Shown here in pieces: positions 11,334 through 61,292 of a stretch of 64,000 nucleotides of DNA. A model generated the notes under the pieces. That model did not search any database, was not told the DNA's origin, and saw only the letters and a list, made by a program, of their open reading frames with translations. Position numbers and translations under genes: made by a program. The stretch is from a bacterium. GTDB taxonomy: Bacteria > Elusimicrobiota > JBDRMW01 > JBDROU01. Every line of letters starts with the position of its first letter. The first letter of the stretch is position 1. Where the stretch lies: contig JBDROU010000046.1 of the NCBI GenBank assembly GCA_043809745.1, positions 1,733-65,732 on the forward strand, read 5' to 3'.

Positions 11334-11334
11334 T

Positions 11335-12787: not shown

Positions 12788-12790
12788 GAA

Positions 12791-35042: not shown

Positions 35043-35142
35043 ACCTTCTGGGAAATTTTTGTGAAGATAAGTACCCTTTAATCTATGAATTGAACTAAAT
35101 AGTTTAATGGCGTCTTTTGCTGTAATCCGTGAATAATCAGAA

Positions 35143-36844: not shown

Positions 36845-36848
36845 ACTC

Positions 36849-44511: not shown

Positions 44512-44514
44512 CTC

Positions 44515-45273: not shown

Positions 45274-45301
45274 ATTTAATCACAACCTCCTTTAATATTT
45301 T

Positions 45302-47077
45302 TTACTTTTGTTCCAAATTAAGAACCGTTAAGAAAGCCTCCTGAGGCAACTCTACATTTGCAAATTGCTTCATTTTCTTCTTTCCCTCTTTTTGTTTTTC
45401 CAGTAATTTCCGTTTTCTGCTGATATCACCGCCGTAGCATTTTGCTATAACATCCTTGCGTAAAGGCGGAATGTTCTCCCTTGCAATGATTTTATTATTG
45501 ACTCGCGATTGAATAGCTATCTGAATCATCTGTCTGGGGATTACTTCTTTAAGCCTTTCTACAAGTTTCTTGCTTACATAATACGCCCTCTCCTTGTGTA
45601 CCACGCTTGATAATGCATCTACCACCTTGCCTTGAACTAAAATTTCAACTTTCATCAAATCGCTTGGCTTCCAACCGCTATGCTCATAGTCGAGAGAAGC
45701 ATAACCCTTAGATATTGATTTTAACTGGTCATAGAAATCAACTATAACCTCCCCCAATGGCAGTAAATAATTAAACATAAGCTTTTTGGATGTGATATAG
45801 TGCATCTGCTTCATCTGCCCCCTCTTCTCCTGGCACAACTGCATAACTCCTCCAACAAACTCTTTCGGCGTTATAATACGGGCCGCTATATACGGCTCAT
45901 CAACAGCCTCCACCTTGCGCGATGGGAAATTAGCCGGGTTTAATATCTCTTCAATCTCATCGTGTTCATTTAATATCCTGTAAACGACGTTAGGAGCTGT
46001 AACAATTATCTCAAGCTGAAACTCTCTCTTTAACCTTTCCTTTATTATATCCATATGCAGTAATCCGAGAAAACCGCATCTAAAACCAAAACCCAATGCC
46101 TGGGATGTTTCTGGTTCGAAATGAAACGACGAATCTGAAAGATGCAATTTGTCAATAGCTCCCCTTAAGAAGCCGTAGTCGGCCGGATTTATTGGATATA
46201 ATCCAACAAAGATATACGGTTTCAACTCTTTGTAGCCGGGATGAGGCTTTTTTGTTGGATTTTTTACCGTTGTAATTGTATCACCGATCTTAACCGCATG
46301 TATATCCTTGATGCCTGTAACCAGAAATCCAACCTCTCCTGAAGTCAATATTTTGGAACTCACCATCTTCGGAGTCAGATAACCAACATCAATGCACTCA
46401 ACCTCCAATTTTGAAGACATCATACACAGTAAATCATTCACTTTCAGCGTACCTTCCAGTATCTTTATATAAATAATCACACCTCTATATGGATCGTATA
46501 ATGAATCAAATATCAAGGCGGATAAAGGAGCATGCGAGTCCTGCTTATATGGAGGTATTTTTTTAACAATGGCCTCTAAAACCTTTTCAACACCCTTCCC
46601 CTCTTTCGCGCTGACGAGAATCGGCTCCTCGCCTAAATGCAGGACTTCCTTTAATTGAACTTTAACTCCTTCAGGATCTGATGCAGGAAGGTCAATTTTA
46701 TTAATTACCGGGATTATAGTTAGATTCGTCTCCTGAGCCAGATAAGCATTTGCAACTGTTTGCGCCTCAACACCCTGTGTTGCATCCACCACTAATATTG
46801 CCCCTTCACACGCAGCAAGCGCCCTGCTTACCTCATAAGTAAAATCTACATGACCGGGTGTATCAATCAAATTAAGAATATACTTCTTCTTATAGATCAT
46901 GCGAACCGCTTTAGCCTTAATTGTGATACCGCGTTCCCGCTCAAGTTCCATATCATCCAAAACCTGGTCGCGCATATCTCTTTTAGAGACAGTACTTGTT
47001 AACTCAAGCAAACGGTCAGCTAAAGTGGACTTCCCATGATCGATATGCGCTATTATAGAAAAATTTCTTATTTCCAA
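45302..47077 (-). CDS. lepA: Elongation factor 4 (LepA)
   Basis: 'IRNFSIIAHIDHGKSTLADRLL', 'DTPGHVDF', 'NKID' and a LepA C-terminal domain. Confidence 0.95.
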   Translation of the reverse strand: MEIRNFSIIAHIDHGKSTLADRLLELTSTVSKRDMRDQVLDDMELERERGITIKAKAVRMIYKKKYILNLIDTPGHVDFTYEVSRALAACEGAILVVDATQGVEAQTVANAYLAQETNLTIIPVINKIDLPASDPEGVKVQLKEVLHLGEEPILVSAKEGKGVEKVLEAIVKKIPPYKQDSHAPLSALIFDSLYDPYRGVIIYIKILEGTLKVNDLLCMMSSKLEVECIDVGYLTPKMVSSKILTSGEVGFLVTGIKDIHAVKIGDTITTVKNPTKKPHPGYKELKPYIFVGLYPINPADYGFLRGAIDKLHLSDSSFHFEPETSQALGFGFRCGFLGLLHMDIIKERLKREFQLEIIVTAPNVVYRILNEHDEIEEILNPANFPSRKVEAVDEPYIAARIITPKEFVGGVMQLCQEKRGQMKQMHYITSKKLMFNYLLPLGEVIVDFYDQLKSISKGYASLDYEHSGWKPSDLMKVEILVQGKVVDALSSVVHKERAYYVSKKLVERLKEVIPRQMIQIAIQSRVNNKIIARENIPPLRKDVIAKCYGGDISRKRKLLEKQKEGKKKMKQFANVELPQEAFLTVLNLEQK

Positions 47078-48819
47078 TTTGATCTAGCAACTCCCCTTTT
47101 GACAACGCGCGATATAGAATCCCTATCGCTCAACCGCATTATCTCTTTTACTAATTCCTGTGATTTGCGAAAGTTCGATGTGCGAATAAAACTCTTAATG
47201 CGCGGCACATCAACCGGAGATATGCTCAACTCGTCCAAACCCAATCCCAACAATACTGCATTTAAGTTCGGATCGGCCGCCATCTCACCGCACATGCCTA
47301 CCCATTTCCCGGCAGCGTGTGTTGAATCCACCACAAATTTAATCAAACGCAATATAGAAAGGTTTAACGGATCGTAAAGTGTCGCAACATCTTCGTTAAC
47401 TCTGTCCACTGCAAGTGTATATTGAATTAGATCATTTGTGCCAATTGAGATGAAATCTGATTCCTTTGCCAAAATGTCTGTTATCAAAGCGGCACTGGGT
47501 ACCTCAATCATGATCCCGATCTCGATATCACCGTCAAAATCAATTCTTTCTCTGGTTAGCTCAAGCTTAACCTCTTTCACTAACTCCTGAACCTGTCTTA
47601 ACTCTTCCAGGGTGCTAATCATGGGAAACATCATCTTTACCTTTCCTTCTGATGATGCGCGCAGTATAGCCCGAATCTGGGGTTTAAGCAGTTCTGGGTG
47701 GTGCAGACATAAGCGAATTCCCCTCAATCCCATAAATGGATTACGCTCCTGCTTTCCAACTCCGTATCCCTGCTTTGCCAATTTGTCACCACCCAGATCC
47801 AATGTGCGGATAATAACACTATAAGGAAGCAGAGATTTAACAACATTAGTATAATGCCTGTATTGTTCCTCCTCTGTTGGAAGCGAGTTTCTGTCTAAAA
47901 ATAAAAATTCTGTTCTAAATAATCCGACGCCCTCTGCCCCATGCGATAGCACTGACTTTACTTCATCTGAAGAATCAATATTGGCAGCCAACACTATTCG
48001 GTGTCCATCAACAGTTTGAGCAGGGAGGTCTTTTAACTTCTCCAACTCTCTTAATTCTGCCATATGTATCTCTTTTGCCCTTCTATAGCTGGAGATTGTA
48101 TCCCTATCCGGATTTATAATAACCAATCCCGCATTACCGTCTATAATCACATCATCACCGGATCTAATAAATTTGGAAATGGCTTTTAATCCAACAACAG
48201 CCGGTATCTCTAAGATGCGGGCAACAATAGCCGTATGAGAAGTTTTTCCTCCAATATCTGTTGCAAATGCCTTAACCATCTGATCACGCATATGAACTGT
48301 ATCCGAAGGACTTAAACTGTGGGCTATAATGAGAACCTCATCTTTAAGCTTGGTCATATCTTTCTTCTTTCTGCCCAATAGGTTCTGCATTATTTTCTTT
48401 CCGACATCTATTACATCATTCTTTCTTTCTCTAAAATACTCGTCATCAAGTTTTTCGAACTTTTTAACAATCTTATCAATACTCTGCTTTAATGCATATT
48501 CTGCCTTTACCCACTCACGGTTTATAGTCTGGATTACATCTTCAGTCAATATTGGATCGCTTAATATAAGCAAATAAGCTTCTATAAGACGAGCATGGCT
48601 CTTTCCAAGGGTTTTAAGTATTTTTTCCTGGGTTTGCAGCATCTCATTTTTTGTTTTGCTTAATGCAGTCTGAAAACGCAATATTTCATCCTTAACACCG
48701 CTCCTTTGCACTGTTGCTTCCGGGAAGTAATCGCTCTCTTCTTCAATAACAAATGCCTTACCTATAGCTATACCTGGGGAAGCAGCTATGCCCTTAAATA
48801 CACTTTTCTTTTTTTCCAT
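47068..48819 (-). CDS. ptsI: PTS Enzyme I (phosphoenolpyruvate-protein phosphotransferase)
   Basis: 'GGKTSHTAIVARILEIPAVVG' (His carrier), a PEP-utilising C-domain 'GMCGEMA', and the EI N-terminal HPr-binding domain. Confidence 0.9.
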   Translation of the reverse strand: MEKKKSVFKGIAASPGIAIGKAFVIEEESDYFPEATVQRSGVKDEILRFQTALSKTKNEMLQTQEKILKTLGKSHARLIEAYLLILSDPILTEDVIQTINREWVKAEYALKQSIDKIVKKFEKLDDEYFRERKNDVIDVGKKIMQNLLGRKKKDMTKLKDEVLIIAHSLSPSDTVHMRDQMVKAFATDIGGKTSHTAIVARILEIPAVVGLKAISKFIRSGDDVIIDGNAGLVIINPDRDTISSYRRAKEIHMAELRELEKLKDLPAQTVDGHRIVLAANIDSSDEVKSVLSHGAEGVGLFRTEFLFLDRNSLPTEEEQYRHYTNVVKSLLPYSVIIRTLDLGGDKLAKQGYGVGKQERNPFMGLRGIRLCLHHPELLKPQIRAILRASSEGKVKMMFPMISTLEELRQVQELVKEVKLELTRERIDFDGDIEIGIMIEVPSAALITDILAKESDFISIGTNDLIQYTLAVDRVNEDVATLYDPLNLSILRLIKFVVDSTHAAGKWVGMCGEMAADPNLNAVLLGLGLDELSISPVDVPRIKSFIRTSNFRKSQELVKEIMRLSDRDSISRVVKRGVARSNWK

Positions 48820-48849: not shown

Positions 48850-49116
48850 TCACTCTTCGCCAAATTTCGAATCGAACAACCTTTCCAATTCCTCAATTGC
48901 AGCTTGTTCGTCTTCACCATCTAATAGTATCGTGAGTTCAGAAAGTTGTTCAGCGGCAAGCATGAGTATGCCCATTATGCTCTTGCCATTAACCTCCTGA
49001 TCACCCTTTATAACTTTTACCTCTGATTTAAATTTATTTGTAGTTTGCACAAGAAGGGCAGCTGGACGGGCATGAAGTCCCAATTTGTTTTTTACCTGTA
49101 ATATTTTTTCTATCAT
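48850..49116 (-). CDS. ptsH: Phosphocarrier protein HPr (carries both His15 and Ser46)
   Basis: 'GLHARPAA' (His15 site) and 'NGKSIMGILML' (Ser46 site for HprK). The track ORF's first 11 aa are an over-extension. Confidence 0.85.
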   Translation of the reverse strand: MIEKILQVKNKLGLHARPAALLVQTTNKFKSEVKVIKGDQEVNGKSIMGILMLAAEQLSELTILLDGEDEQAAIEELERLFDSKFGEE

Positions 49117-49919
49117 TATAATAATCCTATCGCGGTCAGAATGACACATAAAACCAGACCACTTATAAATATTTTTATTGTGGATTGCTCCAATATTTTT
49201 AAGCTGACAAACAGAATCAAAAACAACGCGCTGAAAAGCTTTAGTTTAACAGTTGGAACATTACAAATAATAAAGAATAAAATGAGAAAAGATGTTATTG
49301 CCAAACCTATCAAACATAACACATGATGAATCTTTGCCAAAGGTATTTTCTTTAAATACTGCAAAACAGCTTCCTTGTAACGTATACCGGCTGCTCCGCA
49401 TAAAAAACGCACATTTAAGGTTACGCTATTATACAAAAGTAAATAGAGTATAATTGACAAAACTATATAATTTGAAGTAATATTCTTAAAACAAACAAAA
49501 AATAACATACATCCGATTATAGAATTAAACGGCCTTAAACACCCCCAAATAAAACTATCTCCTATAGCAGCTAGTGAGGATGAAAGATATTTTTTTATCA
49601 TAGGAATCTCTTTATCCATATTCCTTTCTGAAGTTAAACTGCTTTCCTCTTTATCTATTACAAGCGCTGCGACAAGAGGGACCAAATATGGGTTAGTGAC
49701 AAAATAATCAAGATGTCTGGTAATTGCAGCGTTCAACTTTTCCGAATTCTTACTATAAATCTTTGTAAGAAAAGGCAGGATAGTAAAAGCAAATCCAATA
49801 TTTTGCAGCCCTTCTCTATTCCAATATGCCTGTATAAAAAATGAACGAAAGAAAAGTATCCAAGCCTTCTTTAATTTAAACAACGAAGCAAAATCAGCAA
49901 GTTTTGAATATATTGTCAT
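49116..49919 (-). CDS. PTS mannose-family EIID component
   Basis: 'FFRSFFIQAYWNREGLQNIGFAFTILPFLTKIY....LNAAITRHLDYFVTNPY' matches the EIID-Man N-terminal consensus. Multiple TM segments. Confidence 0.75.
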   Translation of the reverse strand: MTIYSKLADFASLFKLKKAWILFFRSFFIQAYWNREGLQNIGFAFTILPFLTKIYSKNSEKLNAAITRHLDYFVTNPYLVPLVAALVIDKEESSLTSERNMDKEIPMIKKYLSSSLAAIGDSFIWGCLRPFNSIIGCMLFFVCFKNITSNYIVLSIILYLLLYNSVTLNVRFLCGAAGIRYKEAVLQYLKKIPLAKIHHVLCLIGLAITSFLILFFIICNVPTVKLKLFSALFLILFVSLKILEQSTIKIFISGLVLCVILTAIGLL

Positions 49920-49942
49920 ATCTGTTCTCACTACGAGCAATC

Positions 49943-50575
49943 TCACCAAACTCTTATTTTTTTAAACTTATCTAAATTAAAGGCAATCACAAGGCTCAGC
50001 AAAGGCAAAAAAACATCAAAAGCGATAAACCCATTTAGAATCATATCCGGTAAAAAAGTAAAAATTATATCTCTTAAGAAACATGCAAATCCCAAGGATA
50101 AAGCAATAAATACAAAATTACGAATTACAATAATAATAATATTCCCAACAATTACACCTGTAACCGCTCGATCAAGATGCTTATATATTGCCTGGAAATA
50201 ATCAAAAAATATAGACGACTTCTTTTTAAACCAAAGATCATATACATGGAAACTCATAGCAACAATAAAAGCGAAGAGTATTGCAATTGTCTTATTATGA
50301 ACAACCGGAGATGCAACTCCTATAAAAAAAACTCCTGCTGTAATTGAAGACATAATCGCGGCATCTAATGGAATAACAACTCCCAAAGGAAGCATATCGA
50401 TGCATATAAGCTCCAGGATAACACCCAAAGTAAACCCTTCAACAGGGGCATTGAAGCAAAATCCAAATACTGTTAAAAGAACCAGCGGCCTTGAAAGCAA
50501 CATCTGTCCTACAAATGTAACGTCTAGCGAAAACACCGAACCGATTAATGAAATTAATAATATTTGTTCAACCAT
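49943..50575 (-). CDS. PTS mannose-family EIIC component
   Basis: Polytopic membrane protein immediately upstream of EIID. The ATG at 50575 overlaps the upstream GH57 gene's stop; the track's TTG at 50626 gives an N-terminal extension. Confidence 0.65.
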   Translation of the reverse strand: MVEQILLISLIGSVFSLDVTFVGQMLLSRPLVLLTVFGFCFNAPVEGFTLGVILELICIDMLPLGVVIPLDAAIMSSITAGVFFIGVASPVVHNKTIAILFAFIVAMSFHVYDLWFKKKSSIFFDYFQAIYKHLDRAVTGVIVGNIIIIVIRNFVFIALSLGFACFLRDIIFTFLPDMILNGFIAFDVFLPLLSLVIAFNLDKFKKIRVW

Positions 50576-52688
50576 TGGCAAGTGTGGAAGCCGAAATTCT
50601 CCATTCCCATAAAAATGAAGAGTCAATATCTAAACCAAACTTACAGTGGGGAGTAATACTTATTCCCTGAAAGGTTTTCTCAAAACCATCTTCAGATTGT
50701 GATACAGTTTCTATAGGGAACTGCCATATATTTACTAAATTATTAAAACACATTTTTACCTGCGTATTTTTTTCAGCGGCGTTCCACAAAAACTCATTTG
50801 AAAATAACTCTTTTTTCTCTTTATATTCGCTGCCAAGCAGCAAATTTAGCTCAACTCCAAACCACAAGTCTACTTTTTGCTTACAGCAGTTCTTTATTGT
50901 ATATAGTACCTTAACCTCACTATCAGGTAAAAATTCAAACCTTTTGCTTACAAATATAGGACAATGGCAGTCTCCTACCCAAACATTCCCTCTGTTTGAC
51001 AGCTCTAATATGATATTACTATCCTTTTCCTCATGTACGCTCCATTTATATTGGGCGAGCACAAAATCCCCCTGCTCCCCGTACTGACTTTTTTCATACT
51101 CATCAAGCCTGGCAAATGGATGGAAAAAGTGATCCAAAAAAGTCAATCTATCGTACCAATCATAAAATAAGCTTTCCTTCAAATCACTTTGCTTAGTTTT
51201 TACTAAACCATGTATAGTTTTAACTTCACCATCTCCCTTATTCTCGCCTTTATCCACAACAACAAGTTTTTCTAACTTTTCATGGTATGCTTCTTTACGC
51301 CTAGTAATCACATTTGTAAGATTTACAGAGTTAGGTTTATAATCCCATTCTATAACAGATCCACCGCGATGAGGAGCAAAATAGAAATTCTGCTGCTTAC
51401 CTTCAATAAGGACCTCCTCAAAACCATCACAATTAAAGTCTTCTATTAGATGCCAGTAATTCTTGCTTTTTGAAGAAGCTATCCCATTATCCGTTAAGCT
51501 TTCTGCTTTTATCAGGTTGCTGTATATGGCCTCCCTAAGATGAGGAAGATACAATCCTCCAAAAACACCATGCCAGTAAGCGCAGTTGCATTGTCCGGCC
51601 CATAGATGGTTGACAGCATCCGAAATAAAATTCTTGTTTCCTTCAACTGATTCAAGCTTATGGACCTTTTGGCTTACCAAAAGCATTTTTTTGTGCATAG
51701 CATTTGATTCAGGATATTTATACAAAAAATTTCTCCAAAGCGCGCCGCGCAAAAATGACATATCTTCTTCTGACATGTCGTTCATGTTCATACGCTTCAA
51801 AAAATGCTCAAATTTTATTTCCATATCCGAGGGCAGCGTCCACTCGGACATCTCAAAATAAGAAGCTGTTGGTATATAAAGCATACCCTTGCCGGGAAAA
51901 GACTTTGAAAAATCGCTGAATTTCCAGGTCTTTATCCATTCCTGGTTTTCATCGAGTAGAGTAAAGAACTTATCCAGCCATCCTTTTTCGTACACATGCT
52001 TATAAGTCCCAGGCCAAAGCCCAAACTTCTCCCCATCATCAGCCATTACAAGAAGTCCCTGATCATGTTTTTCAGCGTACTGCCTGAAATAATCAATGCA
52101 TTTTTCCGCAGTACTGAATGGTATCATGTACCTTAACATTTTGTTAATTGGGAACAGTTTGACAGTAACTCCTTGTTCCTCAGTTACAAAATAACCTGTC
52201 AATTTATCACATGAAATTCCTGCTGCCTGAAAATGCGCATCATCCAGAATGGTATACTCTACACCGGCCTCAGCTAATACCTTGGGAAGGTGCGGTTCCC
52301 ACACACGTTCTGTTAGCCAAAGACCTTTAGGCATAAATCCAAAACAATCTTTAATAAACTTACTTTGTTTTTTTATTTGACCTATCTTATCGCTATCCGG
52401 AAGCGAAGAAAGTATCGGTTCATAATATCCGCCTGTTAGAAGCTCAAGCCTTCCCGTGGAAACCATATTTTTAAGTTTCGCAAGAAACTCAGGCTTATAT
52501 ACTTTTAGCCAATCAAACAAAACCCCGCTAACATGCAGATTCCAGTTTATACGCGGATGCTTCTCCAGAACCTCTAATAAAGGCTGGTATGAACTGGCAA
52601 AAGCTTTTTCCAGGACCTCACTAAAATTACCGACAGGCTGGTGGTTATGGATGCCAAAAATAAAATTTACTGTTCCCATATTTGACAA
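50568..52688 (-). CDS. GH57 4-alpha-glucanotransferase (Thermococcus-type)
   Basis: 'NFIFGIHNHQPVGNF...WLTERVWEP...GVEYTILDDAHF' is near-colinear with the N-terminus of characterised GH57 4-alpha-glucanotransferases (HxHQP motif). Confidence 0.8.
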   Translation of the reverse strand: MSNMGTVNFIFGIHNHQPVGNFSEVLEKAFASSYQPLLEVLEKHPRINWNLHVSGVLFDWLKVYKPEFLAKLKNMVSTGRLELLTGGYYEPILSSLPDSDKIGQIKKQSKFIKDCFGFMPKGLWLTERVWEPHLPKVLAEAGVEYTILDDAHFQAAGISCDKLTGYFVTEEQGVTVKLFPINKMLRYMIPFSTAEKCIDYFRQYAEKHDQGLLVMADDGEKFGLWPGTYKHVYEKGWLDKFFTLLDENQEWIKTWKFSDFSKSFPGKGMLYIPTASYFEMSEWTLPSDMEIKFEHFLKRMNMNDMSEEDMSFLRGALWRNFLYKYPESNAMHKKMLLVSQKVHKLESVEGNKNFISDAVNHLWAGQCNCAYWHGVFGGLYLPHLREAIYSNLIKAESLTDNGIASSKSKNYWHLIEDFNCDGFEEVLIEGKQQNFYFAPHRGGSVIEWDYKPNSVNLTNVITRRKEAYHEKLEKLVVVDKGENKGDGEVKTIHGLVKTKQSDLKESLFYDWYDRLTFLDHFFHPFARLDEYEKSQYGEQGDFVLAQYKWSVHEEKDSNIILELSNRGNVWVGDCHCPIFVSKRFEFLPDSEVKVLYTIKNCCKQKVDLWFGVELNLLLGSEYKEKKELFSNEFLWNAAEKNTQVKMCFNNLVNIWQFPIETVSQSEDGFEKTFQGISITPHCKFGLDIDSSFLWEWRISASTLANG

Positions 52689-52698
52689 TAGCTAGAAA

Positions 52699-54453
52699 CT
52701 AAATTTTAACCGCTTCCAGTTTTTGAGGCTCTACTCTTTTAAACGTTTTATAATCTATATCTGGGAAAGGGTTGTTTTTGTTCCTAATAGCGCTCAATAT
52801 TTCTTTGGCCTTATCATCATCTTTGTTTGATTTGATTAGGTGTATTATTTTCTTAAAGTATTGATAGTGCTCCATGAACCTTTCACGGGCATAGTCGCGT
52901 GCCTGACCGGTAGTGATAAGGAACGGCCAATCAGAAGACTGCATCAATACTAACTCCCTGGCTGCCTGCTGCAGTAATTCCAGCTTAAAACCATTCGCAT
53001 CAGGATACTCACTGACAACATTTTCCATCTCCTCTTCCGATGCATGAATGTAAGGCCAGATCCATTCGGTATCCGGGTTGTTCCATACATAATGACCGCC
53101 GCCATTGCCCCATGACGACTCCAGCAGCTCTATAACCCTGGGAGGTTGAACAGAATCCACAAATTCGCCTATAGTACGTCTGCGTACATAAGGATTTGCG
53201 TTAATCTTTTCTACTACCTTTTCTATCCAGGAAATACCTTCAAACCACCAATGCCCGAATAGTTCGGTATCATATGGAGCGAGAATAACACCTTCCTCCC
53301 TATTATTTGCATAAAAATTCTTCAACAATTCTTCAACCAGTTTGTTAAAATGATCGGAATTTTCGTTTACTCTTGGAATTGTATTATCCAGAGAATAAAT
53401 ATCCTTATATCCAAGATCCGTATCGCGTCCTGTAATCTTCCAGTACTGTAATCCTGATTGAGAATCTTTCTTATGAAACTCTCTATAGTTGCCATCTCCA
53501 GGGTAACCCCATTCTCCGCTCCACACCTGCAATCCTGTTTCCTTATTTCTGCCTAACGCAATACATCCGGACTTAAGAAGGTATGGAAAATATGTTGATG
53601 CAGATCTCTTCTGAGAATAATCTATTTTAGGCGGGAGTATTTCCTTATATAGTCCCATCATCTTCCCTCCCCAGAAAGCTGATCCACCTTCAATCGCATG
53701 TGAATCTGTAATGAAATATTCAATACCATTAGCCACTAAAAATTCGTCTATCCCTTTTTTCCAGTAACTCTCATTCTCACCCAATCTGTTAAGATATCCA
53801 GGCCTATAAGCGCACTCCGGCAACCAGATGCCCCTGGGTTTTCTATTGAAATGCCTTTGATAAGTTTTGACTCCAAGTTCAATCTGAGCTTGGATGGAAG
53901 AATCCCTATTAAGCAAAGGGAGATAAGCATGTGTGGCAGCTGAGGTCAATAACTCTATATGCCCTTCTTCTTGAAGAAGCCCAAAAGCCTTTACTAAATC
54001 CCTCCTGAATTTCTCAAAATATACATACTGAAGATTTTTAAAATAATTAACATAAAAATTACTCAAAGCATAAAACTTTTTTTCACCTGAACGTTCGAAT
54101 CTCTTGCAATCCATCTCAGCCCTTGACAGCCTGTCATTAAGATAATTTTCAAAATTCGCTAGCATATACGGATCGTTTAATTGTTCAAGCAGAACAGGTG
54201 TTAATCCAAAAGTTAATTTTGGAGATATATTTTTTTCTTTTAATCGATACAGCATATCAAGCATCGGGAGATAAGTTTCTAGAATGCCTTCATATACCCA
54301 TTCTTCCCCAAATGGCCAGTATCCTGCTTTCCTTACATACGGGAAGTGGCTGTGAAAAACAAAGCAAAAGCTCCCAAACTTTTCGGTTTCCGGGTTATTA
54401 ACTCTCATAAATCGCTCCTTTCCCTTACAAAATAAAAATTGGCGCCAAAACAA
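52699..54453 (-). CDS. GH57 1,4-alpha-glucan branching-enzyme-like protein (GH57 plus DUF1957 architecture)
   Basis: 'FCFVFHSHFPYVRKAGYWPFGEEW' (GH57 HxHxPY motif) and 'GLTPVLLEQL'. 584 aa with an alpha-helical C-terminal half, typical of GH57 glycogen branching enzymes. Confidence 0.7.
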   Translation of the reverse strand: MFWRQFLFCKGKERFMRVNNPETEKFGSFCFVFHSHFPYVRKAGYWPFGEEWVYEGILETYLPMLDMLYRLKEKNISPKLTFGLTPVLLEQLNDPYMLANFENYLNDRLSRAEMDCKRFERSGEKKFYALSNFYVNYFKNLQYVYFEKFRRDLVKAFGLLQEEGHIELLTSAATHAYLPLLNRDSSIQAQIELGVKTYQRHFNRKPRGIWLPECAYRPGYLNRLGENESYWKKGIDEFLVANGIEYFITDSHAIEGGSAFWGGKMMGLYKEILPPKIDYSQKRSASTYFPYLLKSGCIALGRNKETGLQVWSGEWGYPGDGNYREFHKKDSQSGLQYWKITGRDTDLGYKDIYSLDNTIPRVNENSDHFNKLVEELLKNFYANNREEGVILAPYDTELFGHWWFEGISWIEKVVEKINANPYVRRRTIGEFVDSVQPPRVIELLESSWGNGGGHYVWNNPDTEWIWPYIHASEEEMENVVSEYPDANGFKLELLQQAARELVLMQSSDWPFLITTGQARDYARERFMEHYQYFKKIIHLIKSNKDDDKAKEILSAIRNKNNPFPDIDYKTFKRVEPQKLEAVKI

Positions 54454-54468
54454 AGATTGCTAAAATCA

Positions 54469-54972
54469 TTATTTTTCTTTTAAGACCACTTGGATCTTCC
54501 TTATTTCCTCAACTACATCAAGCCGCTTATCATTAGGCAGAACCCTGCTTTCAATCATTACATTATAATCAGCTATCTTCTCAAACAATATGCAATCATC
54601 CTGATCGACGTAAAGCGCGTCATTGATCGCAACTTTACCTTTTGCAAAATGAAGCCCTCCAACATTAATTGACTCAAGCTTTACGCCATTTTCAAGCAAC
54701 TGTAAAATTTCTCTAGGGCTCTCAACCAAGATCAGGACATGATCATTTTTATAATCATCATTTTTAAGAGCTTCAACAGCTTTCTGAACATGCAGATAGT
54801 CTACAGTAACTCCCACAGGAACAGCAAGCGAAAACAGTATTTTCTCATTCTCTTTTTCAGCAAGTTCATCAGAAATTATAACGATTTTATCCGCGCCGAT
54901 AACTCTAAGCCATCCTTCAACAACCTGCCCATGAATTAAACGGTCGTCAATCCTGATTAAATTTATTGCCAT
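54469..54972 (-). CDS. PTS mannose-family EIIB component
   Basis: 'INLIRIDDRLIHGQVVEGW' is the PTS_IIB (sorbose/mannose) phospho-His signature. Confidence 0.85.
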   Translation of the reverse strand: MAINLIRIDDRLIHGQVVEGWLRVIGADKIVIISDELAEKENEKILFSLAVPVGVTVDYLHVQKAVEALKNDDYKNDHVLILVESPREILQLLENGVKLESINVGGLHFAKGKVAINDALYVDQDDCILFEKIADYNVMIESRVLPNDKRLDVVEEIRKIQVVLKEK

Positions 54973-54981
54973 AATTACACC

Positions 54982-55389
54982 TCATTTCAATTTATCCATA
55001 AACATACCTTTTGCATTTATCATAGATTTTTTTGCGTCCTCCAGAGTTTTATTTGCTAACTCCTTCAATCCCATCCTCTGCCTGTTTATCAATGCTGAAA
55101 TCAGCATAGGCAAACTTAAGCCTGTTAAGATCTCAAGCGAGAAATCATTTATCAGCCCCAGACACGCGTTAGAAGCACTCCCTCCAAGCATATCGGTCAT
55201 TATCAGTATACCGCTGCCATCATCAAGCTTATTCAATGAACCGCGGCATCGCTCTTTTATACTCAAAAGACTATCTTTTGCAGTAATCGCGACTACTACC
55301 ACTTTTTCCTGAGGGCCTACTATGCTTTCGGCTGCTCTCAAAATCTCAACTCCGAGTTGTCTATGTGTAAAGAGCGCTATCCCAACCAA
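54982..55389 (-). CDS. PTS mannose-family EIIA component
   Basis: TTG start with a GGAG RBS. '(M)VGIALFTHRQLGVEILRAAESIVG' fits EIIA-Man (His10 region). Confidence 0.75.
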   Translation of the reverse strand: MVGIALFTHRQLGVEILRAAESIVGPQEKVVVVAITAKDSLLSIKERCRGSLNKLDDGSGILIMTDMLGGSASNACLGLINDFSLEILTGLSLPMLISALINRQRMGLKELANKTLEDAKKSMINAKGMFMDKLK

Positions 55390-55401
55390 TTATTTCTCCA
55401 C

Positions 55402-56265
55402 TTATTTTTTTATGTCTCTATGTAATAAACTCACATTAAAACCCAGCTTCTTAGTTATTTTTGCTAATTCTTCCATTACAAAAACACTTCTGTGTCTGCC
55501 GCCGGTACAACCAATACCTACTGTAAAATAAGATTTTCCTTCTTTAACATATAAAGGAAGAATCATTTTAAAAAGTTCTTTTAACAAGTTTAAAAAGCGC
55601 TTGGCCTGTCTATTCTTAAGTATAAATCTCATTACTCTCTCATTCTTCCCGGTTAAACGGCGCAACTCAGTAACGTAATTAGGATTAGGCAGAAACCTAA
55701 CATCTAAAAGCATATCAACATCCATGGGCACCCCGTGTTTATACCCGAAAGATACCAGATGCATATGCATACCAGGTTTATCTAAGGATTCAGCTAAAGA
55801 AATTAATTCCTGCTTAAGCTCGCTTAAAGAAAGATTACTAGTGTTAATTATCTTTTCTGCGCTGGATTTTATCTCAGAAAACTTCTTTCTCTCCAATCTT
55901 ATCCCTTTTATAATACTCCTTCCAAGGGGATGCCTTCTCCTGGTTTCAGAATATCTCCTTAACAAAATTTGATCATCGGCATCAAGAAATATAATTTTAT
56001 ATTGTAATCCAGCCGACTTTAATTCTCTCAAAGAGCTGAAGAATTCCTTAAAAAATCCACCTTCTCTAATATCGATACCCAGCGCAACTTTCGCAAATTT
56101 TTTTCTAAGCCTTTTAGTCAACTCCACAAATCTAGGAAGAATAGCTAAAGGCAGATTATCAACGCAAAAAAAACCAAAATCCTCCAAACACTTTAGTGTT
56201 TGGGTTTTCCCGGCTCCGGACATACCGGTCACAATAATAAAACGCACTGGTTCAGACATCAACAT
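55402..56265 (-). CDS. rapZ: RNase adapter protein RapZ (YhbJ)
   Basis: 'IIVTGMSGAGKTQTLKCLEDFGFFCVDNLP' and the C-terminal 'GCTGGRHRSV' motif. Confidence 0.9.
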   Translation of the reverse strand: MLMSEPVRFIIVTGMSGAGKTQTLKCLEDFGFFCVDNLPLAILPRFVELTKRLRKKFAKVALGIDIREGGFFKEFFSSLRELKSAGLQYKIIFLDADDQILLRRYSETRRRHPLGRSIIKGIRLERKKFSEIKSSAEKIINTSNLSLSELKQELISLAESLDKPGMHMHLVSFGYKHGVPMDVDMLLDVRFLPNPNYVTELRRLTGKNERVMRFILKNRQAKRFLNLLKELFKMILPLYVKEGKSYFTVGIGCTGGRHRSVFVMEELAKITKKLGFNVSLLHRDIKK

Positions 56266-57247
56266 CTGCCTTATTATTATTATTCCGCGACTTCGATATA
56301 GATGAATATTTCATTATATCCAGTAATTTTTTGTTTAATTCCCTGCCTGTGAACAGCCCCTTATTGCGCAAACGTTGATTGAGAGCAGCAATCTCAATGA
56401 GTACTGCCAGATTCCTGCCCGGATATATTGGGATGTTCAGTATTGGAACTTTTATTCCCAGAATCTCTGTTTCTTTTTGCTCCAGCCCTAAACGATCATA
56501 TTCTTTCTTTGGATTCCACATCTCCAGATGTACCACAAGTTCAATTTTATAAGAATCAAGTATTGTTCCAACACCAAATATATTTCTAATGTCAATTATT
56601 CCTAACCCTCTTACTTCCATATGATGCCGTATTACTTCATCACCCGAACCAATCAAAAGCCCTCCTGAACGATGTCTGATCTCTACTACATCGTCCGCAA
56701 CTATCATATGCCCTCTTTTTAACAGCTCAAGAGCACATTCAGATTTGCCTATCCCGGATACACCTGTTATCAGCACTCCCAGTCCATATATGTAGACCAG
56801 AACACCGTGAATAGTGGTAAACGGAGCCAGATTTTCTTCAAGGAATACAGTGACCTCGCTTACAAAATTAGCGGTATCTAACGACGTTTTAAATATTGGC
56901 ACATTTTTTTTATTGCAAATTTGTATTACTTCCCAATGCGGTCTCAGATTGCGGGTGAAGAACAGACATGGCAGGGCATCATAATTGAGCATCATGCTGA
57001 AAACTTCTCTGACCTTTTTTTTAGGCAGAGAGTTTATGTATGAATGCTCTCCTTTTCCAAATACCTGAACGCGCTCTGCGCGAAAAAAATCAAAAAAACC
57101 AGCCAGGACCAAGCCGGGCCTATTAATTTCAGAAACTGTTATTTTGCGCTTTAGCCCCTTAGATCCTCCGATAAGCTGCAATTTTAACTGATCTTTTTTA
57201 TCCGCGCTATACAACTTACTAACAGTTAGAACATTTTCCCCTAGCAT
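56252..57247 (-). CDS. hprK: HPr kinase/phosphorylase
   Basis: 'GVLITGVSGIGKSECALEL' P-loop and 'GHMIVADD' / 'LEVRGLGIIDI' HprK C-domain motifs. Confidence 0.9.
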   Translation of the reverse strand: MLGENVLTVSKLYSADKKDQLKLQLIGGSKGLKRKITVSEINRPGLVLAGFFDFFRAERVQVFGKGEHSYINSLPKKKVREVFSMMLNYDALPCLFFTRNLRPHWEVIQICNKKNVPIFKTSLDTANFVSEVTVFLEENLAPFTTIHGVLVYIYGLGVLITGVSGIGKSECALELLKRGHMIVADDVVEIRHRSGGLLIGSGDEVIRHHMEVRGLGIIDIRNIFGVGTILDSYKIELVVHLEMWNPKKEYDRLGLEQKETEILGIKVPILNIPIYPGRNLAVLIEIAALNQRLRNKGLFTGRELNKKLLDIMKYSSISKSRNNNNKADVDV

Positions 57248-57699
57248 TCATCCTCTTCTTTAATTATTTTAAGTATCTCTTCACTGCTCTTTGCTTCCCT
57301 CAAAGCCTGCCTAAAAAACTTATCCTTTAGCAACCTCGAAATTTTTGCCAACGCCTTCAAATGAACTCCGGCTGAATCATGAGGAGCAACGAGCAGAAAG
57401 ATTAGGTTTACGGGTTCCCCATCGAGCGCATCGAAATCTATACCTTTTTTTGATATTCCAAACGCAGCTAGTATATTAGCTATAGAATCAGATTTACCGT
57501 GAGGAATGGCTATTCCCTGCCCGATCCCGGTTGAACCCAAACTCTCCCGATCCATCAATATCTTAACTATCTTATCGGTATCCTTAATCTTTTTTCCCTT
57601 TGACAGCAACTGAACAAGCTCTTTTATGGATTCTTTTTTAGTCTGACATTGAAGATCCACAGAAATCGAATCAACATTTAAAAAATCTCTAATTTTCAT
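57241..57699 (-). CDS. ptsN: PTS EIIA-Ntr (fructose-family EIIA, PtsN)
   Basis: 'GIAIPHGKSD' active-site His region. 152 aa. Confidence 0.85.
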   Translation of the reverse strand: MKIRDFLNVDSISVDLQCQTKKESIKELVQLLSKGKKIKDTDKIVKILMDRESLGSTGIGQGIAIPHGKSDSIANILAAFGISKKGIDFDALDGEPVNLIFLLVAPHDSAGVHLKALAKISRLLKDKFFRQALREAKSSEEILKIIKEEDEC

Positions 57700-57857
57700 A
57701 GTTTAATCCCTCCCAGGAGTGTCTATTATAAGTTATTTTTTTATAACGTTATTAACAGAAAATATATAAAATTTAGCGCCTATAGTCAATGAAGTTAAAA
57801 TTCAAAAAAATATATTAGAATTTATCTAGTAATTTAATTTAGTGTAATTAAGCGAAC

Positions 57858-58574
57858 TTACATGCGAAATTTTTGGCCTAGATATACCCTTCTCGCCTCA
57901 GAATTTGAAAGCAAATCCTTAGAAGTCCCCTCCAGAAGCACCCTGCCCTCATATACTATATATGCTCTATCGATTATCTCCAAAGTTTCACGCACATTAT
58001 GATCAGTGATAAGTATCCCAAGTCCTTTATCCCTTAATTGCGCAATTATCGATTGTATATCATGCACAGCTATAGGATCTATACCAACAAATGGCTCGTC
58101 CAAAAGTAAAAAAGAAGGCTGGGTAACCAAAGTCCTTGCAATTTCGCAACGCCTCTTTTCACCGCCCGAAAGCGTCGCAGATTTCTGGTCTGCCAGATGA
58201 GTAAGCCCGAGTTCACTTAAGAGCATATCCGCCCTCTTTAACTTTTCATCTTTAGGAATATTGCTAAATTCCAAAATAGCCATTAGATTATCTCTTACAC
58301 TGAGATTTCTGAAAATTGATGGTTCCTGAGAAAGATAACCTATTCCAAGCCTAGATCTCATATACATTGGTATGTCATTAATTATTTTATCATCCAAAAG
58401 CACATTCCCTTTTAGTGATTTAAGAAGTCCTACAATCATATAGAATGTGGTTGTTTTACCCGCACCGTTGGGACCAAGCAGGCCTACAATTTCACCTCTG
58501 TTAACGAACATGCTTACTTCATTAACAACTCTCTTACGCCCATAATATTTACTTAATTTTTCCGCTCGAAGCAC
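57858..58574 (-). CDS. lptB: LPS export ABC transporter ATPase LptB
   Basis: 'GLLGPNGAGKTTTF', 'LSGGEKRR' and 'LLLDEPF'. The GTG start at 58574 with a GGGGAGGAAAG RBS avoids the 68-nt overlap with lptA that the track ORF implies. Confidence 0.9.
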   Translation of the reverse strand: MLRAEKLSKYYGRKRVVNEVSMFVNRGEIVGLLGPNGAGKTTTFYMIVGLLKSLKGNVLLDDKIINDIPMYMRSRLGIGYLSQEPSIFRNLSVRDNLMAILEFSNIPKDEKLKRADMLLSELGLTHLADQKSATLSGGEKRRCEIARTLVTQPSFLLLDEPFVGIDPIAVHDIQSIIAQLRDKGLGILITDHNVRETLEIIDRAYIVYEGRVLLEGTSKDLLSNSEARRVYLGQKFRM

Positions 58575-59256
58575 TTTTCTTTCCTCCCCAAACAATACCT
58601 TCCACGCTGCGATCAAGCAGCAGTGTTTCTGTATTTAGAAGAATTGTTATCTTGTCGCTGTTAAAATAATTAACACCGCTGTCATCTATCATAACAATCA
58701 ACGGTTTATCGCCTGTCATTACAACCACTTCTTTTTTCTGATCGTATTCGGCGCGATCCGACCAAATGTCCATATTGCTGTTTGCTAAATACACATTACC
58801 CAAAGCCTTTACATATCCTTTTTTCTCATAAAACTTTATCTCATCTGCATACAAGAACAACGCATCAGCGTCTTCTCCACTGCCTCTAATTATTGCCTTT
58901 GGGAATCCATAAAGAGTTCCCTGCTGTGAGCTTCTGTCGTAACGAGCGCTTGAACCAAAGGCTTCAATTACATCTCCTTCTTCCTGAACAAAAAATATTC
59001 TAATATTCCCTTCTATAATAATCTCTTCTGTTTCCTCATTGTATATAGCTTCTGAGGCTTTTAACCAACTCTTTCCTTTTTTCATCAAAACACCATCTTT
59101 GTAAATAGTAAGCATTCCCTTATGTCTGAATTCCATATTGTTTCCGGTAATAACAGCCTTCTCTTCCTCCTTTGCGTGCAAGAATAAATTGGACTGAAGA
59201 CTAAACATCAACGCGATCAACATCAATACAAATTTTGTCAGCATATTACTTTTCAT
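58549..59256 (-). CDS. lptA: LPS transport periplasmic protein LptA
   Basis: Signal peptide and OstA_N-like beta-jellyroll 'ITGNNMEF...IIEGNIRI'. Located between lptC and lptB. Confidence 0.75.
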   Translation of the reverse strand: MKSNMLTKFVLMLIALMFSLQSNLFLHAKEEEKAVITGNNMEFRHKGMLTIYKDGVLMKKGKSWLKASEAIYNEETEEIIIEGNIRIFFVQEEGDVIEAFGSSARYDRSSQQGTLYGFPKAIIRGSGEDADALFLYADEIKFYEKKGYVKALGNVYLANSNMDIWSDRAEYDQKKEVVVMTGDKPLIVMIDDSGVNYFNSDKITILLNTETLLLDRSVEGIVWGGKKSASSGKIK

Positions 59257-59818
59257 TACTAATCTCGGTAATATTATCCTTTATTTCAATAACCTGTAAT
59301 CCTACATCGGATTCGAACCCAACCCCATTAGTTATCATATTGTGCCTGATAATAGATACAGGCTTATCAGAATATATTTGCTTCTTTTCAATATCGTAAT
59401 ACACTTCTTCCGTTTTGATAACAGTTCCTTCTTTCTTGGAATCTATTACAACATCTCCCCACATAATTATTTCATTTTTATCCTGATCAACCTTACCGGA
59501 TTTGGCGGAAACCATGGAACCTTCTTTATCTTCTTCAAAGAAACGTATCGAAGGCATCTCTAAGAGCGCCACACTACTTTGTTCATAAAGGCGCGCTTTT
59601 GCGGCTGTTAAAACCCAAACCTTTTTGCCGCCTTCTCGATTAGCCATAGTAAATTCTTTGATTACCTGCTTAGGCTTCTCTCCATTTTTATATAGAGTAT
59701 TGCTGCCTTTCTCCTGACAAGAGATTAAAAGAAAAAGCAGTAAGCAGAATCCCAGAATAGCAATTGGACACATGCCAATTACGGTTCTAAGGTAAAAATT
59801 TATTCCTTTGTTTTCCAT
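59246..59818 (-). CDS. lptC: LPS export system protein LptC
   Basis: N-terminal TM anchor, about 190 aa periplasmic beta-jellyroll. Canonical position upstream of lptA. Confidence 0.7.
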   Translation of the reverse strand: MENKGINFYLRTVIGMCPIAILGFCLLLFLLISCQEKGSNTLYKNGEKPKQVIKEFTMANREGGKKVWVLTAAKARLYEQSSVALLEMPSIRFFEEDKEGSMVSAKSGKVDQDKNEIIMWGDVVIDSKKEGTVIKTEEVYYDIEKKQIYSDKPVSIIRHNMITNGVGFESDVGLQVIEIKDNITEISNEK

Positions 59819-60723
59819 CGATTATGCATCCATACCCATTGATCCGGGAATTCTCTAACAATATCCTCAACTATGTTTGTGAAGTTCTGCGTATTAATAA
59901 GTACATCTTGTTCTCTGTCCCCGGTTCTAACTAAATGCAATGGAGAGCTTACTCTTAATGTATGCTTCTTATCTCCTCTAATTAAAAATCCGCTTACCAC
60001 TGGCGTATTACTTCTTAATGCTAAAGTCGCTAATCCTATTGTGGTATGCGCTTTTCTGTTGAAATAATTTACAAAGATTCCTGCGACTTTTGTGTCCTGA
60101 TCAATCAGTATACCAATTACCTCGTTTTTCTTTAATGCTCTAATAATATCCCGCGGTGAGCTTTCTTGAGATCTTAATATAACTTTCATGCCAACCGTTT
60201 CTCTAAGCGAAACAAGCAGCTTATTTATACCCTCAATATAAATCTTCCGCGCGATAACATTAATCGGAAATCCCCAAATGGACAAACTCCCGCCCATTAA
60301 CTCCCAGTTGCCGAAATGCGCTGTAAGGTATAATACCCCCTTGCCAAAAGACAGCGCCTTTTCAAGATTAGCCCTATCAGGAAAATCAACAAGACTGTTA
60401 ACCTTATTGAGATTTAACGAAGGAAACTTAAAAAGTTCAAAAAGGTTTTTCCCCTGATTAACAAAACTTTTTTTTGCGATCTGCTTTATCCTTTCCAACT
60501 TAAAATCCGGAAAGGCAATACTTAAATTATTTATGGCCTGCTTTCTAGCATTTGCTATTAAATAGTAAATTAATAATCCTAATGCCCCTCCGACTTTTGA
60601 ACAAAAACGAAAAGGAAACAAGAAACAGATATAAAAAGCCCCCCAAGCAAGAACAGCAAGAATATGCCTAAAAATTAATCTCAAAAATCTCACTTTAAAT
60701 ATTCTTTCACAATACGGCGCCAT
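59800..60723 (-). CDS. Lipid A biosynthesis late acyltransferase (LpxL/HtrB family)
   Basis: N-terminal TM. '...NLSIAFPDFKLERIKQI...' and 'THFGNWELMG' (H(X)4E-like acyltransferase motif). Confidence 0.75.
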   Translation of the reverse strand: MAPYCERIFKVRFLRLIFRHILAVLAWGAFYICFLFPFRFCSKVGGALGLLIYYLIANARKQAINNLSIAFPDFKLERIKQIAKKSFVNQGKNLFELFKFPSLNLNKVNSLVDFPDRANLEKALSFGKGVLYLTAHFGNWELMGGSLSIWGFPINVIARKIYIEGINKLLVSLRETVGMKVILRSQESSPRDIIRALKKNEVIGILIDQDTKVAGIFVNYFNRKAHTTIGLATLALRSNTPVVSGFLIRGDKKHTLRVSSPLHLVRTGDREQDVLINTQNFTNIVEDIVREFPDQWVWMHNRWKTKE

Positions 60724-61226: not shown

Positions 61227-61292
61227 ATCAAATCCAAAACTTTAATATTTATTTTTACTTGAAACCCCGGAACCGAAATTGGTCTAGTAACT

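Follow-up and report, generated by a model that had tools for sequence, protein, structure and literature searches.

The stretch of DNA analysed here (the window) comprises 64,000 nucleotides (nt) of contig JBDROU010000046.1 from assembly GCA_043809745.1. On its minus strand a mannose-class phosphotransferase system (PTS) and its regulatory proteins are encoded in one gene block, and two genes for glycoside hydrolase family 57 (GH57) enzymes are placed between the genes of the IIB and IIC components. The window proteins were taken from a listing of open reading frames (ORFs) and scanned with Pfam, using the gathering scores as cut-off, and selected proteins were also compared with NCBIfam cut-offs. 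The order on the minus strand is ptsN-hprK-rapZ-IIA(Man)-IIB(Man)-GH57 branching enzyme-GH57 4-alpha-glucanotransferase-IIC-IID-ptsH-ptsI. Every gene from ptsN to ptsI scores above its Pfam gathering cut-off, and the gene order and the complete mannose-class PTS described in an earlier note on this DNA are therefore upheld. The features are the following, with lengths in amino acids (aa) and LPS standing for lipopolysaccharide.

57700-57857, minus strand: AT-rich gap of 158 nt between lptB and ptsN, a candidate promoter region by its size and sequence
57241-57699, minus strand: stand-alone EIIA type 2 protein, PtsN-like (EIIA-Ntr by position), 152 aa (PF00359, 144.7 bits; His in an IPHGK motif)
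56252-57247, minus strand: HprK, HPr(Ser) kinase/phosphorylase, 331 aa, P-loop GVSGIGKSE (Hpr_kinase_N and Hpr_kinase_C; TIGR00679, 364 bits against 240)
55402-56265, minus strand: RapZ, 287 aa, P-loop GMSGAGKT (RapZ-like_N and PapZ_C; NF003828, 332.8 bits against 244)
54982-55389, minus strand: EIIA-Man, 135 aa, phospho-His9 in LFTHRQ (PF03610, 64.7 bits against 21.4)
54469-54972, minus strand: EIIB-Man, 167 aa, phospho-His14 in RIDDRLIHGQ (PF03830, 148.6 bits)
52699-54408, minus strand: GH57 glycogen branching enzyme homologue, 569 aa from ATG 54408 (PF03065, 146.5 bits; PF09210 BE_C, 105.3 bits)
50568-52688, minus strand: GH57 4-alpha-glucanotransferase, 706 aa from TTG or 703 aa from ATG 52679 (PF03065, PF09094, PF09095)
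49943-50575, minus strand: EIIC-Man, divergent and short, 210 aa (PF03609, 35 bits against 26.3)
49116-49919, minus strand: EIID-Man, divergent, 267 aa, motifs WN.E..QN and FxTNPY (PF03613, 101 bits)
48850-49116, minus strand: HPr, 88 aa from ATG 49116, with His15 and Ser46 (PF00381)
47068-48819, minus strand: Enzyme I (EI), 583 aa, without a GAF domain (PEP-utilisers_N, PEP-utilizers, PEP-utilizers_C)
43423-47077, minus strand: lepA, lepB and hemW, co-directional downstream of EI (Pfam)
57858-62323, minus strand: LPS genes kdsA, kdsC-like HAD hydrolase, lipid A acyltransferase, lptC, lptA and lptB (Pfam), with kdsA at 61532-62323 and lptB at 57858-58616

For four genes the mechanically listed ORF starts (TTG 54453, TTG 50626, TTG 49949 and ATG 49149) lie too far upstream. 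The starts adopted here are backed by the lengths of homologues and by NCBI gene models (P0001, 267 aa; P0008, 703 aa). IID is identical to P0001, a protein of an NCBI metagenome-assembled genome, and the transferase likewise has an identical counterpart there; an exact-sequence look-up of IID gave no entry. According to the ORF listing and Pfam, the minus-strand run is uninterrupted from kdsA to hemW.

The genes of the block are tightly packed. From ptsN to hemW all gaps are at most 60 nt (range -14 to +60 nt), and five start/stop overlaps were found between ptsN and lepA: ptsN/hprK (-7), hprK/rapZ (-14), GH57/IIC (-8), IID/HPr (-1) and EI/lepA (-10). The overlap that the earlier note had placed at 50568/50575 is real, since the stop codon of the GH57 transferase (50570-50568) and the ATG of IIC (50575-50573) lie in a shared segment of 8 nt. 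A ribosome-binding site (GGAG) is present in the widest internal gap, the 60 nt from IIB to the branching enzyme. Otherwise a gap of any size is found only between lptB and ptsN, and it contains a promoter-like TTGACT-17-TATATT match (57789-57761, minus strand), a weak one that is equally frequent in shuffled sequences. No terminator-like site was found inside any intergenic gap of the block, the numbers of promoter-like and terminator-like sites are close to the shuffle expectation, and the sigma-54 promoter pattern occurs in the block at chance level only; an independent promoter or terminator within the block was rejected on these grounds. Searches with Rfam at gathering thresholds gave RNase P RNA and tRNA matches in the window and no regulatory RNA in the block. 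Co-transcription of the block, which the earlier note had suggested from the overlaps, is thus well supported structurally as a prediction, and lepA, lepB and hemW may be on the same transcript as EI because lepA overlaps the latter by 10 nt. The GC content of both GH57 genes, overall and at the three codon positions (GC1-3), matches that of the neighbouring genes. A recent horizontal insertion of these genes was rejected on account of this match and of the same placement in distant relatives (see below).

Both GH57 assignments were confirmed, and the calls, which the earlier note had allowed might fall short of the thresholds of hidden Markov models, pass those of Pfam. The 4-alpha-glucanotransferase (GT57 hereafter) aligns over its full length (residues 6-680) with the Thermococcus litoralis 4-alpha-glucanotransferase 1K1W (E 2.9e-151) and contains the PF03065 (184 bits), PF09094 (AmyA middle, 120.6 bits) and PF09095 (AmyA C-terminal, 208.2 bits) domains. 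The catalytic nucleophile Glu123 and the acid/base Asp214 of 1K1W align to E127 (WLTERVW) and D218 (ADDGEKFG), and this catalytic Glu and Asp are invariant in 27 homologues. The branching enzyme matches the solved structures 5WU7 (E 1.7e-149), 3N8T (E 5e-137) and 1UFA (E 4e-125), and its motifs WLPECAY and APYDTELFGHWW are intact in the alignment with 5WU7. We take WLPECAY (Glu) and YDTELFGHWW (Asp) to be the catalytic motifs of GH57 branching enzymes. Two NCBIfam equivalog models are missed by this protein, NF041133 of Thermococcales (576 bits against 1000) and NF041566 of Thermus (516 against 920); these models cover narrow clades, and the window protein is a homologue from outside them. A weak GH38N Pfam match was also seen. 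No signal peptide was found in either GH57 protein, which argues that both are cytoplasmic. Judging from these alignments, the two proteins are full-length and catalytically intact homologues of solved enzymes and look like ordinary cytoplasmic alpha-glucan enzymes.

When 34 PTS-embedded transferases were compared with 52 non-PTS ones, no alignment column had a residue that was conserved in 85% or more of the embedded group and occurred in no more than 15% of the other, and a new specificity of the embedded enzymes is therefore not indicated. A phospho-glycosidase specialised for PTS products was rejected because of this result and of the architecture, which is identical to that of the T. litoralis transferase. 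Among the 120 best transferase homologues, no fusion of IIB with GH57 was found.

The phospho-acceptors of the PTS proteins were read from the translations: His15 and Ser46 in HPr, as the earlier note had stated, His9 in IIA, His14 in IIB (RLIHGQ) and the His of the IPHG motif in the PtsN-like protein. The IIA histidine is kept in all orthologues aligned (n=18). As is required of a mannose-class PTS (TC 4.A.6), IIA-Man and IIB-Man carry histidines (IIB a His and not a Cys) and IIC and IID are separate subunits. HprK and RapZ pass their NCBIfam equivalog cut-offs. The PtsN-like protein misses the TIGR01419 PtsN equivalog (110.7 bits against a cut-off of 138.7) and passes as a fruA/fructose-type IIA domain, so that its name rests on domain and position only. 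To say that the block stands under EIIA-Ntr was an overstatement in this respect, although the EIIA type 2 domain and its position are as claimed.

The permease subunits are more divergent. IID is related to ManZ of the solved ManYZ complex (6K1H; E 2.4e-20) and keeps the family motifs. IIC is barely detectable in pairwise comparison (ManY, E 0.8), and 17 of 17 IIC orthologues match PF03609 (best E 6e-38). Both lie below the NCBIfam subfamily cut-offs, IIC with 22 bits against 278 (TIGR00822/NF011647) and IID with 101 bits against 293 (TIGR00828/NF008315). The pair belongs to a divergent mannose-class subfamily that curated models miss.

The placement of the transferase was followed in two surveys, whose loci are given L numbers. 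In the first, seeded with the transferase and using one genome per GTDB species, 80 loci were returned and mapped by tblastn with the window proteins and extra queries. All 14 Elusimicrobiota-labelled species loci (including Endomicrobiales, Elusimicrobiales, Ruminimicrobiellum, Endomicrobiellum, Proendomicrobium and Parendomicrobium) carry the transferase within the PTS block, and in 13 of them it lies directly downstream of IIB; the contig of the remaining one (L007) begins just upstream and shows only transferase-IIC-IID-HPr. Their order is lptB-hpf-ptsN-hprK-rapZ-(CofD/YvcK)-IIA-IIB-GT57-IIC-IID-HPr-EI(-lepA). The same placement was found in a Firestonebacteria metagenome-assembled genome (MAG; L053) and in two loci labelled 'bacterium' (L029) and 'uncultured Clostridia' (L028). 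Moreover, in five further independently called contigs the gaps on either side of GT57, towards IIB and towards the gene that follows (HPr in L164, otherwise IIC), range from -4 to +26 nt. With dozens of independent genomes and contigs sharing it, the placement is beyond chance, and the notion that it is peculiar to this genome has to be dropped, as it is the norm in Elusimicrobiota. In other phyla, among them Margulisbacteria and Firmicutes, the transferase is found outside the PTS and often beside DUF4912 and a GH57 branching enzyme (L020, L025, L041, L070 and L078), which indicates that it belongs to alpha-glucan metabolism.

The surroundings of the block are also shared. The upstream LPS genes, up to lptB, are those to which a PTS block of the rpoN cluster is usually anchored, and the same anchor is present in the relatives, while lepA straight after EI is a signature common to Elusimicrobiota-type loci. 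The window and the Elusimicrobiota loci have the EI-lepA-lepB continuation in common, and the nearest matches from named organisms are from Elusimicrobiota/Endomicrobiales (LepA 60-62% and transferase 44-48% identity). On the basis of these matches and of the shared continuation, the window derives from a deep-branching, Elusimicrobiota-related lineage. The contigs of its closest relatives by LepA (77% and 69% identity) end before the GH57 genes. Two details distinguish the window: its lptB-ptsN gap lacks hpf, which nearly all relatives have there, and rpoN, which some have, and the CofD/YvcK gene found between rapZ and IIA in most relatives is absent (12-nt gap).

The second survey, unbiased with respect to GH57, was seeded with a IID profile searched against metagenomes; it gave 80 loci on unlabelled contigs, 60 of them with the IIB-IIC interval visible. 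The transferase lies between IIB and IIC in 24 of these 60. In the other 36, IIA-IIB-IIC-IID are contiguous and no GH57 gene is present; these are blocks of the rpoN-cluster type (lptB-rpoN-hpf-ptsN-hprK-rapZ...HPr-EI), mostly with rpoN and hpf, and they belong for the most part to separate rpoN-containing clades of the IID tree. The plain contiguous PTS block is accordingly the wider and older form, and it corresponds to the PTS of the 'ancestral rpoN gene cluster' of Comas et al. 2008 (PMC2405797). Four Elusimicrobiota-type blocks (L108, L110, L126 and L130) also have IIC following IIB with no GH57 gene, three of them with lepA after EI, and they nest in or beside GH57-positive clades of the IID tree, which indicates secondary loss or (repeated) gain. 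The earlier note had considered that relatives might show the PTS genes contiguous, with the GH57 genes as a recent, lineage-specific insertion. Contiguous genes do occur, in the wider block family and in those few Elusimicrobiota-type blocks; the insertion of the transferase is not recent, because relatives with no more than 25-40% IID identity to the window have it at the same place, between IIB and IIC (23-40% in the comparison of IID proteins). It is an old feature of a large clade and the norm in Elusimicrobiota. In a neighbour-joining tree of GT57 the enzymes embedded in a PTS group with those of Elusimicrobiota; the tree tracks taxonomy and alone is no proof of co-evolution with the PTS.

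The branching enzyme behaves differently from the transferase. An orthologue at the same IIB-GT57 junction was found only in L009 (53% identity), and in both surveys the branching enzyme is absent from the block in all other GT57-positive loci mapped. Of the GH57 pair the transferase alone is conserved, and the branching enzyme in the block is a rare, lineage-specific addition. In L009 DUF4912 and a GH57 branching-type gene are placed between rapZ and IIA, and a second branching-type gene and the transferase between IIB and IIC. Further alpha-glucan genes have in this way joined the same operon by accretion, the branching enzyme in the window and L009, and DUF4912 with a second branching enzyme in L009. 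The L009 locus (4754-10004) comes from an Elusimicrobiota MAG and has three GH57 genes in its PTS operon.

A distribution of this kind could also arise with no functional link, if a single insertion brought the GH57 gene into a stable operon with high expression in an Elusimicrobiota ancestor and it was carried along since then, tolerated and not selected. The distribution does largely follow the organismal phylogeny, with maybe only one or two independent events, the transferase is lacking in several Elusimicrobiota-type blocks (L108, L110, L126 and L130), and the housekeeping genes on either side, lptB and lepA, show that synteny is frozen throughout the region. However, the gene has stayed at exactly this junction, with the spacing of translational coupling, even though IID identity has fallen to 25-30%, and more alpha-glucan genes were recruited into the same operon. 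Moreover, the transferase is retained in a locus where IIC and IID are gone (L164) and is associated independently with hprK-IIA-IIB in phyla of the Fibrobacteres-Chlorobi-Bacteroidetes (FCB) group. Taken together, we consider this explanation rather improbable.

These last loci deserve a closer description. L164 (positions 6086-11160 of the 423-kb contig JX_farmland_Scaff06041879, ENA ERZ1761208) reads IIA-IIB-GT57-HPr-EI, followed by lepA-lepB, with no IIC or IID in the locus. It is the sole such case seen, and it keeps the IIA and IIB histidines, the latter in a motif RLVHVQ instead of RLIHGQ. In Ignavibacteria (CAZPOP01; L017, 3680-12169) and Zixibacteria (JBARPX01; L014, 239-8859) the order is lptB-rpoN-hpf-hprK-IIA(Man)-IIB(Man)-MlaD-like-GT57, and none of IIC, IID, HPr and EI is encoded within 10 kb; both histidines are kept, and the phospho-His motif of IIB is conserved in all orthologues, those of the FCB loci and L164 included. 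L042 and L052 have hprK-MlaD-GT57, and a MAG named 'Bacteroides sp. SM23_62' is among these FCB-type loci. The MlaD-GT57 pair is also found away from hprK (L076, L080 and L167), and the hprK-MlaD-GT57 adjacency in FCB may go back to a single inherited event. Across all these loci the constant neighbour of the transferase appears to be the soluble IIA/IIB (or hprK) side of the system and not the permease.

The MlaD pairing is an observation in its own right, as an envelope protein of lipid-transport type is here encoded with a glucan enzyme. In L167 (6099-9202) a MlaD/MCE protein with a 'Helical_needle' domain lies directly upstream of GT57 with a start/stop overlap, and a MlaD/MCE protein immediately upstream of the cytoplasmic GT57 is also seen in L076, L080 and L059.

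The permease-free loci suggest a second possibility, namely coupling directly at the protein level: the phosphorylation state of IIB(Man)/IIA(Man) would control the transferase by binding, or phosphorylated IIB (IIB~P) would phosphorylate the enzyme, the released glucose or the glucan. The gene that constantly adjoins the transferase is indeed that of IIB and not of the permease, and L164, L017 and L014 have no permease genes nearby and retain the histidines, with L042 and L052 keeping hprK; these loci seem to fit a direct relation between IIB and the enzyme better than import plus storage. There are also precedents for PTS proteins acting on other targets. Glycogen phosphorylase is bound and activated by HPr in E. 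coli, MalK and GlpK are inhibited by EIIA-Glc, and DhaM, with its EIIA-Man-type domain, drives the phosphorylation of a soluble substrate. On the other hand, the 120 best homologues include no IIB-GH57 fusion, and the PTS-linked enzymes have no residue of their own such as a docking or phospho-acceptor site might require. The MlaD-GT57 pairs away from hprK in FCB leave room for one inherited accident of adjacency, and IIC and IID could be encoded elsewhere in the L164-type and FCB genomes. We think coupling of this kind unlikely. Its strictest version, in which IIA/IIB(Man) of the rpoN-cluster PTS would target GT57 or its glucose or glucan directly, with IIB~P switching the enzyme or phosphorylating product or glucan without a permease, is suggested by L164 and by the Ignavibacteria and Zixibacteria loci but seems to us distinctly improbable. 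If it were true, one branch of the PTS would have its end point in the cytoplasm, at the metabolism of storage glucan, and the orphan IIA/IIB(Man) proteins of Gram-negative bacteria would have a function.

The block might instead be a catabolic unit, with an alpha-glucoside such as maltose or a maltooligosaccharide taken up through IIC/IID and its (phosphorylated) product then processed by the GH57 enzyme, in the manner of the phospho-glycosidases encoded in other PTS operons. Glycoside hydrolase genes are common within PTS operons and disaccharides are among the substrates of mannose-class systems, and the substrate of the divergent IIC/IID subfamily is not readable from homology. Nevertheless, to our knowledge no GH57 member acts on phospho-sugars, the embedded enzymes match their non-PTS orthologues at conserved positions and have the full three-domain T. 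litoralis architecture, and 36 loci have the same IIC/IID subfamily and lack the enzyme. Conversely, the enzyme persists without IIC/IID in L164 and the FCB loci, and in the window and L009 it was a branching enzyme, with a synthetic function, that joined the operon. A unit of this type is in our opinion very unlikely. The glycoside PTS are covered by a review (PMC13543919).

The best reading of the block, to which we would give an even chance of being correct, is a coupling of alpha-glucan turnover to a glucose-type PTS at the level of the operon. The block would be a mannose-class PTS of the rpoN cluster, lptB-(rpoN)-(hpf)-ptsN-hprK-rapZ-IIA-IIB-IIC-IID-ptsH-ptsI, into which one or more GH57 genes were inserted. 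A single transcript from the lptB-ptsN gap would provide the phosphorelay (EI, HPr, IIA and IIB), the regulators (HprK, RapZ and the PtsN-like IIA), the permease and the alpha-glucan enzymes in fixed proportion. The PTS would deliver a hexose, which is glucose according to the literature discussed below, as hexose-6-phosphate, and the branching enzyme would serve glycogen synthesis from this pool. The transferase would act in a MalQ-like manner, disproportionating maltodextrins from glycogen breakdown or from uptake and releasing free glucose, and in lineages without glucokinase this glucose would be phosphorylated by the PTS. The gene identities, the intact catalytic and phospho-acceptor residues, the tight or overlapping junctions and the deep conservation of the placement are established; what we infer from them is that there is one transcript, that glucose is the substrate, that the transferase has a MalQ-like role and that its glucose is passed on to the PTS. 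The window also encodes a glycogen debranching-type enzyme with GH77 and GDE_C fused, and there is thus little doubt that the organism handles storage glucans. This protein (1547-4468, minus strand, 973 aa) has an N-terminal GH77 domain of the amylomaltase-type 4-alpha-glucanotransferases and a C-terminal amylo-alpha-1,6-glucosidase (GDE_C) domain; its layout of transferase and glucosidase resembles that of the glycogen debranching enzyme of eukaryotes, except that the transferase part is GH77, and all its NCBIfam matches are under the cut-offs.

Several points weigh against operon-level coupling. In 36 of the 60 IID-seeded loci the same kind of block does without GH57, and the logic of import plus storage does not need the loci without permease genes, L164 and those of Ignavibacteria and Zixibacteria. 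IIC and IID are far under the NCBIfam subfamily cut-offs, and homology does not reveal what they transport. No glgA, glgC or glgP was seen in the window, and the whole case rests on synteny and homology. The statement of the earlier note that the arrangement directly links phosphotransfer state to glycogen metabolism goes too far: it was drawn from synteny, no regulation was seen, and the enzymes look like ordinary orthologues.

Several known systems can be compared with this block. One is the 'regulatory' PTS of the rpoN cluster in Gram-negative bacteria, with EI-R, HPr, HprK, PtsN and IIA-Man, which in Desulfovibrio vulgaris includes a putative transporter of the mannose class (Comas et al. 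2008, PMC2405797). The window shares with it the position after lptC/lptA/lptB and the genes ptsN, hprK, IIA(Man), ptsH and a GAF-less ptsI, so that one cluster encodes HprK, an EI lacking GAF and an HPr in which His15 and Ser46 are present, and it shares with D. vulgaris the full IIA-IIB-IIC-IID set. The lptC-lptA-lptB-ptsN-hprK series is present, whereas rpoN and hpf are missing from the window cluster (158-nt gap). The two GH57 enzymes between IIB and IIC are a further difference and are unmentioned in PMC2405797.

In Endomicrobiaceae, a mannose-type PTS is described for glucose uptake, and the PTS compensates for the loss of glucokinase (PMC11257099). The Elusimicrobiota PTS is there regarded as a real glucose uptake system, in contrast with the purely regulatory PTS of the rpoN cluster. 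The block is the same and so is the phylum, and the window adds the branching enzyme. A survey of Elusimicrobia (bioRxiv 10.1101/765248) scores PTS and glycogen genes as separate traits, and term searches of these two papers gave no passage on GH57 within a PTS operon. We found no description in the literature of a glucanotransferase in such a mannose PTS operon, nor of GH57 combined with HprK (the single GH57 paper listed is an unrelated enzyme characterisation), the E. minutum genome paper (Herlemann et al. 2009) being outside the search. As far as the searchable literature goes, the arrangement is therefore undescribed, as had been thought.

Other PTS operons offer partial parallels. The levDEFG-sacC operon of Bacillus subtilis combines a mannose-class PTS with a polysaccharide hydrolase. 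As in the window, where this is predicted, the genes for mannose-class IIA, IIB, IIC and IID share a transcript with that of an enzyme whose substrate is a polymer of the sugar taken up. However, SacC is secreted, is encoded after IID and feeds the transporter from outside, whereas the window has cytoplasmic storage-glucan transferases between IIB and IIC and an operon that also includes HprK, RapZ, PtsN, HPr and EI. PTS operons with phospho-glycosidases are also known, such as mngA-mngB (GH38) and treB-treC (GH13) of E. coli and those with GH4 phospho-alpha-glucosidases. They too encode a glycoside-active enzyme with a PTS permease, and GH57 and GH38 both have the (beta/alpha)7 fold; the window differs in showing no sign of phospho-sugar specificity, in having an orthologue of glucan transferases and in its mannose-class PTS. 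The HPr-glycogen phosphorylase pair of E. coli has in common with the window the theme of phosphotransfer state linked to alpha-glucan turnover, but it is a protein interaction between products of unlinked genes, whereas in the window the link is genomic and involves a different enzyme (the GH57 transferase).

All components are thus of known kinds, and what is new is a conserved storage-glucan transferase directly after IIB. Its conservation suggests that the turnover of alpha-glucans is hard-wired to sugar phosphotransfer by a link that has so far gone undescribed. What the mannose-class PTS proteins at the rpoN/lptB cluster do has been a loose end for long; in most phyla no substrate or target has been assigned to them. 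A transferase after IIB throughout a phylum, which persists where the locus has no permease genes and recurs next to hprK-IIA-IIB in FCB phyla, would be a concrete and testable candidate partner. Even if the coupling is only transcriptional, Elusimicrobiota may tie the turnover of glycogen or maltodextrin to their main route of glucose entry, and metabolic reconstructions should treat both as one unit; many such Elusimicrobiota are glucokinase-poor fermenters with small genomes.

Elsewhere in the window some further features were observed. Positions 4980-15741 (plus strand) carry a complete-looking cluster of the type II secretion/type IV pilus-like kind, with genes for an AAA ATPase, a secretin, a GspE-type ATPase, GspF, the GspG pseudopilin, three more N-methyl pseudopilins, and GspK-, PilN- and PilO/GspM-like proteins. 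At 38910-42053 (minus strand) a 1047-aa protein is encoded with only a weak match to a GH2 TIM barrel (E 1.6e-10), and its neighbouring ORFs, 38158-38913 and 42279-43025, match no Pfam family. A PorP/SprF-like membrane protein is encoded beside one that carries a CHU_C domain (type IX secretion signal) at 35846-38138 (minus strand), with modest Pfam E-values of 1e-9 to 1e-11; type IX secretion parts are typical of Bacteroidota and unexpected in an Elusimicrobiota-related genome. The class A RNase P RNA (33305-33760, minus strand; 202.6 bits) is 456 nt long against a model of 367 positions and therefore carries insertions. A tRNA-Val(CAC) gene (34970-35043, minus strand) lies near it, and directly upstream of it an RNase H/RVT_3 protein is encoded at 33765-34205.

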